From: a virus
Taxonomy: Duplodnaviria; Caudoviricetes
Length of the DNA: 64,000 nt
Strand: one strand, 5' to 3'
IMG/VR virus record: IMGVR_UViG_3300044675_005052
Position numbers and translations under genes: made by a program. Shown here one piece after another: positions 7,850 through 64,000 of this stretch. How positions within the stretch are numbered: position 1 is the first letter of the stretch; each line of letters starts with the position of its first letter. The notes under the pieces were generated by a model that was not told where the DNA came from, made no database searches, and saw only the letters and a program-made list of their open reading frames with translations.

Positions 7850-7856
7850 TATTTAT
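7850..7856 (+). promoter_or_regulatory. Putative late promoter TATTTAT (for 7862-8041)
   Basis: TATTTAT immediately upstream of ATG 7862. Confidence 0.5.
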
Positions 7857-7861
7857 ATAAT

Positions 7862-8041
7862 ATGAAACTGATTAGAACAATATCGAATTTGGTAACTGAA
7901 TCTAAAAAAATTTACGAAGAAGCCTGTGAAAAAGGTGTCAACGAAAAAGAATTAGATAGATTAGAAAAAAACTACAACGAATCCTTAAAACTTTTAAGGA
8001 TTTATGAGGGTTTGAATAAAACCAAACAAGAAAATATTTAA
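7862..8041 (+). CDS. Small protein (59 aa, not in ORF track) with LVTE leader
   Basis: MKLIRTISNLVTESKKIYEEACEKGVNEKELDRLEKNYNESLKLLRIYEGLNKTKQENI*; late motif upstream; stop overlaps the convergent fibre stop. Confidence 0.6.
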   Translation: MKLIRTISNLVTESKKIYEEACEKGVNEKELDRLEKNYNESLKLLRIYEGLNKTKQENI

Positions 8042-11000
8042 GTCCAAGAATATTTTATTTCAACTCCACTAATATGGACTGTCCATCTCATAGTATCTCC
8101 AACAGCACCGGTTACTTGTATATCTAAAGCATCATTTGTATCATCCGCAGATATTGTAACGTCATACAAAGCGTTATCTTCAACATCTGTCCCTATGGTT
8201 GATACCGGACTCGCACCAATTAATGAAGTTGTTCCACCTACATTTTTAATGGCAACTTTTCTTATATAGTGAGCTGCTGATGTACCACCACTAGTAATTC
8301 CTGCAATATTAATAGTAACAAACATTGCGGTTTCGTTTAAAACTGATATTCTTTGTGATGAACCATCTAAAAAAATGTTAACAGTTGTTACACCTGTTGT
8401 TGTATTTCTACCTAATAAATCTATTTGTTGTGTCTCACCTGTACCGGTAAATGGTGTCCAAGTTCCATTTGCAAACGACCTTTGTCCAAAACGAGGAGCA
8501 CAAGCTCTATTACCGCCAATAATAGATGAATTTTCTCCATACGCTCTATTAAGAAAACCTCCCGTTACTGTTGAAGATGCTCCAGATGCGACATTTAGTT
8601 GACCACCACCAATTGTTGAATTTGCCCCCGATGCGGTATTTTCTCTACCACCCCCAACAGTTGAATAATTATCACTTGCTGAATTACAAAAACCTCCGGC
8701 AATCGTTGCACGATTTCCATTTACAGTATTATCCCATCCACCACCTATTGTTGAAAAAAATCCTGAAACGATATTACTTATACCACCACCAATAACTGAG
8801 GTACACCCTGATGCGGTGTTACAAAACCCACCACCTATTGTTGAATCAACACCTGAGGCGATATTACTTCTACCACCACCAATAAATGAGTTAGTACCTT
8901 GTGTTGTGTTAAAACCACCACCGGCAATTGTTGAACGATAACCGTTAGCACAATTACCTCGTCCACCACCAATAGAAGAATCTCTACATACTGAATTATT
9001 CTCTCGACCTCCACCAATAAATGAATATTCTCCTAATAACGTATTACATCTACCACCACCTATTGTTGAATCTATTCCACCTGATGTATTACATCTACCA
9101 CCGGCAATTGTTGAAGTAGAACCTGATGATGTATTATTTGAACCACCACCAATAAATGAATAAACTCCTGATGCCGTATTACAATTACCACCACCAACAA
9201 CAGTTGAAGTTGATGATGATATGTTACCACCACCACTACCTACAAAAGAACGTAAACCTGATGCCGTATTACCATTACCACCACCTATTGTTGAAAAACA
9301 ACATGATGCCGTGTTTTTAAAACCACCACCAACAGTTGACCAACAACCTGAAGATAAATTACAACTACCACCACCAATAAATGAAGTACATCCTGATGCG
9401 GTGTTACAATATCCACCACCCACAAATGAAAAACAATTACTTGAAGTGTTTCCTGTACCTCCACCTACAAATGAAAAATATTCGGAAGAGGTGTTTTTAC
9501 AACCACCACCAACAAATGATGACTTACATGAGAGATGACAGACACCTGTACCAACAAATGAACCACTTCGTGCACAATTACAAAATCCATTTGATATGAT
9601 TGAATAACTACCACATGCGGTGTTTTTACGGCCTCCTATGATAGCGGAACTAGTACCATAAACTATGTTACAACAACCACCACCAATAAATGACTGATAA
9701 CCGTATCCAACACAATTAGATTGTCCCCCAACTATAGATGAATATTTAGTATAATATGAAGATATATAATTAGATTTACCACCACCAATTGTTGAAAACA
9801 CACTTGATACTGTATTTCCTGAACCACCAACAATTGACGAACAATTACCGATAGCACAATTAGTAGTACCACCACCGACAAATGATAATGCTGATGTCAC
9901 ATTTTTACAACCTCCGGCAATTGTTGAGGTATTACCTGATGCTATATTACAACATCCAGCGCCAATAAATGAATAAGCTCCTGAAGATGTGTTACTTAGT
10001 CCACCGGCAATTGTTGACCTAAAACATGAAGATGTGTTAGATTGTCCACCACCAACTGTTGAATACTGAGACGATGCTATGTTCTTACACCCACCTCCAA
10101 CAAATGAACAATTTCCTGACGCGGTATTATTTCTACCACCGGATATTGTTGAATCTATTCCTCCTGATGTATTATTTCTACCTCCGGCAATTGTTGAAGT
10201 TTGCCCTGTGGCGACATTTAAACTTCCACCACCAATGAATGAAAAATTACCTGAAACTGTGTTTTGATTACCACCACCAATTGTTGATGAGGTACCAGAT
10301 ACTATATTACCAACACCACCACCAATTGTTGTACAATAGTCTAAAGCGTTATTATTTATACCTCCCCCAATAAATGTATAATTACAAGAGACTGTATTAT
10401 TTCTACCACCGGCTATTGTTGAATAATTACCATTAGATTCGTTACTAAAACCCCCACCAATTGTTGAATGAGGACCTGAAGCAATATTACTACTACCACC
10501 ACCAATAAATGAACATGCCCCCGATGCTGTGTTTTTATAACCACCACCAATTGTTGAAGTACTACCAGAAACAGTATTACCACAACCACCACCAATAAAT
10601 GAATGAGTTCCTCCACTAATAATGTTTTGATTTCCCCCAACTACAACTGAAAAATCTGTTGTTCCCGAGTTTGATGACCCACCTAATACTGCACTACAAT
10701 TTCCCGATGCAAGATTACTAACACCACATCTAACAGATGAGTTAACACCTGTTCCGGTTATAATTACGGCTGATGAACCACCACCTCCACCACCGGCAAT
10801 AGGTACTAAAAGTCCATTTGTGCTAACTCCAACATAACAACCACTACAAGTACTCATAGAGTCAATAATCATGTCGTTAACAAATGTTGTACAATTTCTA
10901 TTTGCAGTTATATTACTACCAACAATCATAGCACATGTGCAACCACTAGTATTATTAGACGAACCACCTAATATTGATGAATAATTACCGGATGATATAT

Positions 11001-62995: not shown

Positions 62996-62996
62996 T

Positions 62997-63815
62997 TTAG
63001 ATTCTAACAACTCCGTTACTATCTCTATTAATTAATTCAGGGTTTTCATTCATATGAAATAAAAATGTATCACCATTTTCATAACCTTCATACTCTTCAG
63101 ATATTTCATAATATTCTCTCATGATTAATGTTTGGTTGTTGTTATAAAAATTATTTGAATCTTCAGTATCAATTTGTTCGTGGTGTTTTATATTGGCAAA
63201 ATACATTTTCCAACGACCACTCCAAGAAACAAAATCAGTATATATAACTTCAGAAGAATCGGATGATTCAACTTTACCTGTTGAATCACAAGTATAACAA
63301 CCCGTCTCACCATCGCCACCACAATAATTACAAGATTCGGAAGTGTGACCATTACAATGTTCACAAGTTTGTTTCCCATCACCTTCACACATATCACATT
63401 CTTCACCAGCATCTTCATCCATACCTGAACCACCACAATATCTACAATCCTCTTCACCGGAGCCATCACAAATACCACATTCTACTTCACCTGTACCATC
63501 ACAATTATCACAATTTTCATTACCATGACCACCACATTCAGGACATTCAACTTCAGGTTCTGAATTGTATATTTCAACTAATTCAATAGTGAACATATTA
63601 TTTTCAATTCTATCATAGTCCTCATCAATATCTGAACCCATATTAAAACGAGGAACTAATAATGAAAACATAACTAAATCTTTTGCTTTTAGTATAAAAG
63701 ATAACGATTCAAAATTGTTATCGTTAAGAATGTCTCGATATACTCCTGTAGGGTTTTTATTGATAAATGATTTTCCGGTTTTTCTAACTAACGAAAGTAA
63801 TTTGTGTTTTTCCAT
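62997..63815 (-). CDS. Protein with expanded DnaJ-type CxxCxGxG zinc-finger array (no J domain)
   Basis: Eight CxxC motifs: CPECGGHG, CDNCDGTG, CGICDGSG, CRYCGGSG, CDMCEGDG, CEHCNGHT, CNYCGGDG, CYTCDSTG. Confidence 0.75.
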   Translation of the reverse strand: MEKHKLLSLVRKTGKSFINKNPTGVYRDILNDNNFESLSFILKAKDLVMFSLLVPRFNMGSDIDEDYDRIENNMFTIELVEIYNSEPEVECPECGGHGNENCDNCDGTGEVECGICDGSGEEDCRYCGGSGMDEDAGEECDMCEGDGKQTCEHCNGHTSESCNYCGGDGETGCYTCDSTGKVESSDSSEVIYTDFVSWSGRWKMYFANIKHHEQIDTEDSNNFYNNNQTLIMREYYEISEEYEGYENGDTFLFHMNENPELINRDSNGVVRI

Positions 63816-63846
63816 AATATTTTAGATTGCAAATATATTTATAAAT

Positions 63847-64000
63847 ATGAGAATTATAGTTAAAGAAATTCAATATTCTAAAATATTAGAGGACGTGGAG
63901 GTAGAGCCATCAAAAACAACTGTCAAAAGTATTTGTGATAGTGAGAAATTTTGTAAGGCACAAGGTAAGATTACTTTTGGTCAATTAAAAGCCATAGTTG
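63847..64000 (+). CDS. 5' part of a protein with ILE leader (truncated by window edge)
   Basis: MRIIVKEIQYSKILEDVEVEPSKTTVKSICDSEKFCKAQGKITFGQLKAIV...; TATTTAT at 63836-63842. Confidence 0.6.
   Translation, partial: MRIIVKEIQYSKILEDVEVEPSKTTVKSICDSEKFCKAQGKITFGQLKAIV

Follow-up and report, generated by a model that had tools for sequence, protein, structure and literature searches.

A conserved TATTTAT element and portable glutamate-ended N-termini suggest late promoters coupled to head loading in a T4-related phage

A 64,000-nucleotide stretch of viral DNA (Caudoviricetes; IMG/VR record IMGVR_UViG_3300044675_005052; the whole stretch is called the window below) raises the question why one heptamer, TATTTAT, precedes a set of its genes and why proteins encoded behind it, otherwise unrelated, begin with a short peptide that ends in a hydrophobic residue, any residue and glutamate. 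A sequence-only reading had linked the two as a late promoter and a portable leader that targets proteins to the capsid and is cleaved there. The analysis described here points to a joint system in which a phage-specific late promoter is combined with an N-terminal head-loading module trimmed by a protease of the T4 gp21 family, and we put the probability of this reading at roughly 0.6. GC content in the window is about 31%, and its roughly 86 genes are devoid of Shine-Dalgarno sites. A minus-strand block of large fibre/tail-like genes (983-16904) is followed on the plus strand by a replication/repair block (16.8-31.9 kb; primase, Mre11/Rad50-like proteins, methyltransferases, a sigma-70-family factor and an amidase) and, downstream of it, by many short transcription units. 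Relatives were drawn from IMG/VR, three of them complete (G002, 318 kb; G003, 321 kb with terminal repeats; G004, 322 kb) and one partial (G005). In G002, 72 of the 86 window genes are syntenic, at 34-100% amino-acid identity.

TATTTAT is not enriched in the window as a whole (51 copies, against 56.6 ± 7.3 in shuffles). Intergenic DNA makes up 4.6% of the window, yet 25 of the 51 copies fall entirely within it and another overlaps it in part. A sense copy within 40 nt upstream of the start was found for 18 of the 86 genes, while 1000 shuffles of the same AT-rich 40-nt segments gave 4.0 on average and 11 at most, so that the heptamer is enriched before starts beyond the AT background. No other 7-mer is as frequent as TATTTAT in the 40 nt upstream of window start codons. 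The heptamer often occurs as TATTTATA, with a preceding A; this longer form was found upstream of 13 genes in sense and of 5 in antisense orientation. All copies listed earlier (nine plus-strand entries, including 48609/48623, and four on the minus strand) were recovered on the expected strand, and further sites, absent from that list, lie at 35622(-), 36795(-), 43366(-), 50734(-), 59450(-), 62471(-), 62482(+) and 63841(-).

The sequence-only reading had given the distance to the start codon as 1-30 nt. The motif does precede the ATGs, but its spacing is sharply bimodal: in the window and two complete relatives together, 66 genes have it at 3-6 nt, nearly all of them at 4-5 nt, and 92 genes at 11-19 nt, with a peak at 13-17 nt. 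When 214 sites were aligned, the only positions conserved upstream were -1, with an A, and -17 to -14, with A or T throughout, and no -35-like element was conserved among them. Many sites are directly preceded by a GC hairpin and a T-run, and the motif is absent before most genes inside operons. Between orthologues of the window and G002, presence of the motif was kept in 17 of 18 cases and absence in 50 of 51 (p=5e-14); for G003 the values were 7 of 9 and 37 of 38 (p=4e-6). Presence was conserved in orthologues down to 36-45% identity. On account of position, sense orientation, fixed spacing and conservation across orthologues, a phage-specific class of promoters with TATTTAT as -10-like element is well supported, and the earlier promoter claim is borne out in this respect.

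Two pairs of opposite-strand copies, at 62471-62488 and 63836-63847, stand back to back, are partly palindromic (TATTTATAAATA) and serve divergent genes; they look like compact bidirectional promoters.

The genes behind the motif suggest when these promoters act. In four relatives TATTTAT lies upstream of the Peptidase_S77 protease and scaffold genes, and in G002 also upstream of portal-flanking genes and gp25. In the window it heads the fibre/tail block on the minus strand, at 16922-16928 (17 nt before the ATG at 16904, the head of the block), 13231-13237 (18 nt before the 1724-aa gene 8038-13212), 6805-6811 (22 nt before the gene 4530-6782) and 3478-3484 (5 nt before the gene 983-3472). Because head protease, scaffold, portal-region and gp25 genes follow the motif, a late promoter is the best reading, and the TATTTAT promoters most likely drive late genes, as gene position indirectly indicates. 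The ten largest G002 proteins of each promoter class (TATTTAT or the host-type TAnnTTTG) were scanned against PHROGs; nearly all were unannotated, the only informative matches behind TATTTAT were the portal and a DnaB-like helicase, and the comparison was uninformative.

The replication block holds no TATTTAT; host-type TAnnTTTG promoters are found there instead. Bacteroidota housekeeping promoters have a -7 element TAnnTTTG and TTTG at -33. TAnnTTTG is enriched upstream of window genes (11, against 2.2 expected), and its gene set is distinct from that of TATTTAT. The two elements have the same length and the same TA start, and both head units in the window. They differ in that positions 6 and 8 of the phage motif are A and A/T, not T and G, and that the TATTTAT sites have no TTTG at -33; lacking the TTG of the -7 element, TATTTAT(A/T) did not pass as a sigma-A promoter. 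A divergent control region at 16905-16990 contains both types, the TATTTAT(-) at 16922 for the fibre block and a TAnnTTTG-like element (+) at 16975 before the primase gene, whose true start probably lies downstream of the GTG at 16807 given in the ORF list. Five exact copies of TATTATCTTTG, with a TAnnTTTG -7 element and conserved flanks, were found at 39543, 51309, 52062, 52256 and 56897 (+). Four of the five precede genes (ATGs at 39572, 51342, 52287 and 56930), and the 13 matches at up to one mismatch were reached in no shuffle; this sequence probably marks an early promoter class of the phage that is read by the host sigma factor.

T4 late promoters have the consensus TATAAATA and depend on gp55, gp33 and gp45. 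Like them, TATTTAT is a single AT-rich -10-like element of 7-8 bp without a conserved -35 that stands before head and tail genes, whereas its spacing to the ATG is 4-5 or 13-17 nt and that of T4 late sites 14-28 nt. As a control, the T4 consensus was found within 80 nt upstream of 10 of 37 T4 late-region genes. A candidate reader is encoded at 27213-28013 (+), a sigma-70-family factor with regions 1.2, 2 and 4 (PF04542, PF04545, PF00140, phrog_351) that is 95% identical in G002 and whose unit has a host-type promoter; recognition of TATTTAT could be due to this factor. With the gp55 profile phrog_234, a syntenic ORF of about 250 aa in the four relatives gave weak matches (E 7e-5 to 5e-3), and the control was positive in 8 of 14 genomes. 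In a phmmer search with early and accessory T4 proteins, including gp55, gp33 and gp45, only gp41 and gp43 were matched in G002, and gp33 and gp45 gave no match. A 90-aa basic protein at 21475-21747 (+) has a weak phmmer match (E=1.6e-4) to DsbA, which in T4 is a dsDNA-binding protein aiding some late promoters.

To turn to the N-termini, the loose rule implied by the sequence-only reading, [ILVM]-x-E within the first 25 residues, was not sustained: in the window it gave 12 of 20 against 30 of 66 proteins (p=0.31, not significant). The motif [ILV][ILV]TE occurs 7 times in the 20,301 residues encoded in the window; 6 of the 7 lie within the first 14 residues of a protein, at a distance of 4 to 13 residues from the methionine, and 5 of these 6 directly follow TATTTAT. 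Two hydrophobic residues followed by x-E were found at residues 2-25 in 9 of 19 TATTTAT genes (47%) and in 10 of 67 others (15%; p=0.005), at an internal background of 13%; enrichment was similar in G002 and G003. A strict position matrix was trained on G002, with a threshold that lets only 2 of 78,083 internal positions pass. It matched 26 of 419 N-termini in G002, and in G003 21 of 362 N-termini against 3 of 82,403 internal positions. In the window the genes at 37829, 48631, 53485 and 59860 match, each with its own TATTTAT. Leader genes lie mostly in units headed by the motif, 22 of 26 against 186 of 393 other genes in G002 (p=2e-4) and 19 of 21 against 199 of 341 in G003 (p=0.0025), counts that are approximate since the assignment of units ignores terminators.

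The main leader type reads M-K-h-h-h-T-E-x-Q-[YLF]-x-x-[LI] (h, hydrophobic), and in many cases another [LI]-x-E follows at residue 15 or 16; other types also end in [LI]-x-E. The glutamate is invariant in each leader family examined, with a hydrophobic residue at P3. IMG/VR was scanned for DNA encoding MKIIITE, which yielded at least 120 stretches. Among the matches listed, to which all counts for this leader refer, there are 131 distinct N-termini: the next residue is S, N or E, position 9 is Q in 89%, [Y/L/F] follows, position 13 is L or I in 90%, and 69 of the 131 have another [ILVMF]-x-E whose glutamate is residue 15 or 16. TATTTAT was found upstream in 40 of a subset of 99 matches.

The earlier proposal that the leader is portable is supported. 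After its removal, the 51 leader proteins of the three genomes fell into 36 BLAST clusters of bodies, with one tandem paralogue family accounting for eight of the 51, and members of the DHH and DUF5856 families have different leaders or none. Eleven leader examples had been named for the window. Four of them are the strict cases, five (31938, 43429, 48986, 55444 and 63847) are upheld by the junction in their orthologues, and the remaining two (7862 and 55910), which have only a close orthologue each, are neither supported nor rejected.

Among the strict cases, the gene at 59860 has TATTTAT at 59825-59831 (+), 28 nt before its ATG and also upstream of the G002 orthologue. Its leader MKLILTE (59860-59880; score 26.8) opens a 177-aa protein of unknown fold, in which M1, K2 and E7 do not vary among 25 homologues. 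AlphaFold models residues 1-6 as a low-confidence coil and residues 7-21 as a helix with pLDDT above 90; a fold search with this model gave no PDB match at E <= 0.001. When the G002 protease was folded together with residues 1-40 of this family the score was 0.00, controls not having been run, which speaks neither for nor against binding. At 53485 the heptamer (53465-53471, +) directly follows a hairpin and T-run, is separated from the ATG by 13 nt and is conserved in G002 and G003. The leader MGNVILTE/KQLEKLINKMKTVNE/ (53485-53553; score 26.9; slashes mark cut sites, known ones in T4 and candidate ones in this phage and its relatives) on a 105-aa protein has two candidate sites, E8 and E23, and the G003 orthologue begins MKNILISEKQL...VSE.

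The gene at 48631 (+) encodes a 117-aa LysM protein (PF01476, 37 bits, residues 66-111) with the leader MTKRFIITE/EEKDDILSKYGLVSE/ (48631-48702; score 18.5). Of the two heptamers before it, the copy at 48609-48615 (+), 15 nt from the ATG, is the conserved one; the copy at 48623, 1 nt from the ATG and not conserved, was set aside. In G003 this leader type also occurs on a far longer gene, of about 620 aa. The LysM gene has as its translationally adjacent neighbour a gene for a 467-aa DHH-like phosphoesterase (22.9 bits, below the Pfam cut-off) with the short leader MKKLIKE/ (48986-49006, +). This protein begins MKKLIKE/SGIRDIN and its homologues L148 and L151 begin MKIIITESQ..MIKE/SGIRDIN, while homologues at 40-44% identity in uncultured phages of 634-642 kb, L266 (LR756502.1) and L267 (LR745206.1), begin M..QFINE/EVG. 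Three different extensions thus end in h-x-E immediately before the same body, and the last two sequences indicate that junctions resembling [LI]-x-E may exist well outside the 320-kb clade.

At 37829 TATTTAT (37806-37812, +) stands 16 nt before the ATG; the heptamer is in place in 41 of 43 orthologous loci, down to 45% amino-acid identity, while the flanks diverge. The leader MRLTNTLSTLITE/ (37829-37867, +; score 13.7) belongs to a 458-aa LRR-like protein (LRR_14, 29 bits, below the cut-off). Its orthologues all read L-I-[T/V/L]-E, with an invariant glutamate. The leader is followed by a Pro/Lys-rich linker.

In the genes upheld by their orthologues, other leader types are found. The 436-aa protein at 31938 has a conserved junction not of the MK-hhh-TE type: its amphipathic N-terminus MRKLTITYLEKMISKVLKE/ (31938-31994, +) follows TATTTAT at 31916-31922 (+) by 15 nt, 12 of 13 distinct upstream regions of orthologues still have the heptamer, and 14 of 15 N-termini keep [LIVM]xE[QNSTDEA], mostly at residue 19. 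The DUF5856 (ferritin/Dps-like) protein at 55444 (PF19174, 75 bits, residues 54-149) begins MGANNVLLEVKKKNLMRE/ (55444-55497, +), followed by an acidic linker, and has TATTTAT 15 nt upstream (55422-55428, +), which is kept in 37 of 45 distinct orthologous upstream regions. Leader sequences differ between subclades of this family; 44 of 45 orthologues keep [LIVM]xE and 35 of 45 [LI]xEQ, and one begins at the domain, without any extension. The 454-aa protein of the gene 43429-44793 belongs to the short-spacing class, with 4 nt between TATTTAT (43418-43424, +) and the ATG, an arrangement conserved in the G002 orthologue as TATTTAT-taat-ATG. Its N-terminus MGNKIVLTNKDLHQIVKQIKE/ (43429-43491, +) has a sub-threshold score of 9.4, and the junction reads IVE/Q in G002 and LIE/Q in G003. 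This protein also matches the head maturation protease family phrog_530 weakly (E=1.2e-4, residues 136-280) and may be a diverged protease paralogue or a head protein. At 63847 a gene that runs off the window begins MRIIVKE/IQYSKILE/ (63847-63894, +; sub-threshold score 10.3), conserved in G002 and/or G003, 4 nt after TATTTAT (63836-63842, +), which overlaps the divergent copy at 63841(-). The 59-aa protein at 7862, 5 nt after TATTTAT at 7850-7856 (+), begins MKLIRTISNLVTE. The N-terminus at 57676 (…LLLTE) was rejected as a leader: it lies in a unit with a host-type promoter, its matrix score is negative and its orthologue reads LLKE, so that it is regarded as a chance match.

What these peptides do is suggested by the head genes of the relatives. 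Both a T4-type prohead protease (Peptidase_S77, 84-93 bits) and a capsid protein of the gp23 type were found in G002-G005, the relatives have a T4-like portal, and a search with the T4 late-region proteins matched gp17, gp18, gp19, gp20, gp21, gp23/24 and gp25. Processed N-termini in the T4 record are MKTYQEFIAE/A for IPII/III, ...STITE/A for IPI, MELITE/LFDE/D for Alt, ...LLIE/T for gp21, ...LIAE/A for gp22, ...LLRE/S for gp24 and ...SFLTE/AEIGG for gp23. The capsid protein of the relatives reads ...ENQASFLINE/ATSDG at a site between the segments that align to T4 gp23 residues 6-41 and 86-126, and their protease has an invariant G-I-L-x-E near its own N-terminus, the counterpart of LLIE in T4 gp21 (PMC9026906). 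With a Peptidase_S77 in the relatives, SFLINE/A matching SFLTE/A of T4, and LITE and TITE in Alt and IPI, the cleavage reading is consistent.

In T4, the targeting sequences are 10-19 residues long, are removed by gp21 and can carry foreign proteins into the head (PMC9026906, PMC5694885, PMC3012670). The peptides described here share with those of IPI, IPII, IPIII and Alt the N-terminal position, a short length (7-22 aa), unrelated bodies and the [L/I]-x-Glu end. They resemble Alt (MELITE/LFDE/), including its double sites, as well as IPI (...STITE/) and the gp23 site (FLTE/A), and have no similarity to MKTYQEFIAE of IPII/III. They differ in number, with no fewer than 21-26 strict cases per genome where T4 has about four, in falling into several classes and in their conservation past the first glutamate, and packaging and cleavage are predicted here. 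In phiKZ-like giant phages (phiKZ, 201phi2-1, SPN3US) many head proteins are cut after glutamate by a gp21-related protease, often at multiple sites and with conserved N-termini among paralogues, as would be the case here; those propeptides are mostly longer than 100 aa and end in S/A/G-x-E, whereas ours are of T4 size with a hydrophobic P3 (PMC5694885). Taken together, capsid targeting followed by cleavage is the best supported of the mechanisms proposed here: the leaders most probably bring proteins into the head and are removed afterwards, a reading consistent with all tests made.

Readings in which the shared elements act on RNA or on translation were weighed against this. TATTTAT might be a translation enhancer or a processing site in A/U-rich leaders, a notion that gains from its fixed distance to the ATG and from the fact that Bacteroidota hosts do not use Shine-Dalgarno recognition. 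We consider this very unlikely: the motif stands at the starts of units, often after terminator-like hairpins, and rarely inside operons, a spacing of 4-5 nt leaves too little RNA for an upstream ribosome contact, and the divergent pairs 62471/62482 and 63836/63841 have the appearance of divergent promoters. Much the same low probability is given to the idea that the shared protein start serves translation, in that the first codons, or else the nascent peptide, promote initiation on leaderless late mRNAs, perhaps with phage bS21. In many leader genes the ATG indeed lies only 4-5 nt after TATTTAT, the isoleucine codons of the leaders favour ATA over ATT relative to genome usage, and relatives encode bS21 (PMC9723584). 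Yet the threonine and glutamate codons vary synonymously as they do genome-wide, so that selection acts on the peptide; moreover the distance from the methionine to the motif is variable, the same peptide is found on operon-internal genes and on those with a spacing of 13-17 nt, and most genes of the short-spacing class have no leader.

More serious, while still unlikely, are two readings that accept a function of the peptide itself. The leaders might be head-protease propeptides on core, scaffold-like or decoration proteins or on assembly factors, a tag bringing proteins to the assembly site with no injection to follow. The T4 cleavage motif also marks the core proteins gp22, gp67, gp68 and gp21 (PMC5694885), and many leader proteins are small (80-200 aa), arranged in tandem and without a recognizable enzymatic domain; LysM, LRR, DHH and DUF5856 bodies, however, are not expected in scaffold parts, and the 36 body clusters resemble the variable internal-protein sets of T-even phages (PMC9026906). 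About equally improbable is an uncleaved module, a strand and helix shared as an interaction or oligomerization element that docks late proteins on a non-prohead partner or controls their stability. It would account for the conserved residues 9 and 13 beyond the first glutamate, for the restriction of a second [ILVMF]xE at residue 15 or 16 to about half of the MKIIITE leaders and for the helix 7-21 of the 59860 family, modelled confidently within the domain. It would not explain why the glutamate is the most invariant residue in every leader class, why families with differing leaders share only the [LI]-x-E junction, or why the motif fits the specificity of the protease family encoded by the relatives.

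Several observations weigh against the head-loading reading and its late promoter. The protease and capsid genes were seen only in the relatives, of which G002 shares synteny for the 72 genes given above. The sense TATTTAT(A) is the reverse complement of the T4 late consensus and did not pass as that element; the gp55-like ORF of the relatives was not recovered by a whole-library hmmscan; and a DnaB/gp41-like helicase gene in G002 also has TATTTAT upstream, so that the claim of lateness stands for the virion genes of the relatives and the fibre block, with this one exception. On the protein side, the strict matrix alone would make 6% of the genes head cargo, a minimum that may be exceeded and already lies far above T4. 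Q9 and L13, after the first glutamate, are as conserved as the residues before it, and for the 59860 family the model predicts that the helix following Glu7 belongs to the fold, in which case only the first seven residues would be removable there. Simple removal of a whole tag therefore does not fit every case.

The relatives also place the window. In G002-G005 a bS21 gene lies on the opposite strand beside the prohead protease and portal genes (G002:C1:44393-44596 and equivalents in G003-G005). In the bS21 phages of freshwater Bacteroidetes described by Chen et al. (2022), which reach 331 kb, bS21 adjoins the protease and portal genes (PMC9723584), and this arrangement therefore assigns the relatives to that published clade, which they also match in genome size and habitat. 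The window is part of a T4-related phage of about 320 kb of freshwater Bacteroidota, within the bS21-carrying clade. A search of GenBank phages found no cultured relative, matches being limited to uncultured phages of 484-735 kb. Four metatranscriptome runs contained assembled contigs of relatives 90-99% like window positions 48000-57999, which have no bearing on promoters or timing. A term search of the text of PMC9723584 found none of the words 'promoter', 'motif' and 'leaderless', and a literature search found no publication on this promoter or these leaders, nor anything relevant on TATTTATA as a phage promoter or on leaderless late promoters of Flavobacterium phages.

We infer transcription starts, timing, the sigma factor, packaging, cleavage and injection along the following lines. 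TATTTAT would be read by host RNA polymerase carrying a phage sigma-like factor. Genes with a spacing of 4-5 nt would give leaderless or nearly leaderless mRNAs that start at or next to the ATG, and those with 13-17 nt a leader of about 10 nt; both classes would suit hosts that initiate translation without Shine-Dalgarno sites. If T4 IPI-III and Alt are taken as the model, the N-terminal module would bind the assembling prohead core, cargo such as the LRR, LysM, DHH and DUF5856 proteins and those of unknown fold would be enclosed along with it in the prohead, and the gp21-family protease would then cut after the glutamate. A bolder version, which we put forward tentatively and at somewhat less than even odds, is a mass head-loading system in which a late promoter, leaderless mRNAs, interchangeable address peptides, dozens of cargoes and T4-type trimming act together. 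The mRNAs would possibly be translated by ribosomes carrying phage bS21, and the injected arsenal would be larger and more modular than in any studied T4-like phage.

Two further loci are recorded here. A 326-aa protein encoded at 6803-7783 (-), among the fibre genes, matches phrog_4417 strongly (E=1.7e-68; unknown function). At 41634-42234 (+), a thioredoxin-like gene (WCGPC) and a glutaredoxin-like gene (CPYC) adjoin in a unit with a host-type promoter.

If the head-loading reading is true, gene starts alone would reveal which proteins are packaged and injected in an uncultured group of phages that is large and abundant; candidate anti-defence or host-takeover factors would then include the LysM, LRR and Dps-like proteins along with the DHH phosphoesterase. 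The genomes of these phages would gain a defined late-promoter element for annotation, and the leaders would provide a ready tag to load foreign proteins into Bacteroidota phages. It would further give a concrete hypothesis tying leaderless late mRNAs to the phage-encoded ribosomal protein bS21, and it would mean that the targeting principle known from T4 scales to dozens of cargoes.

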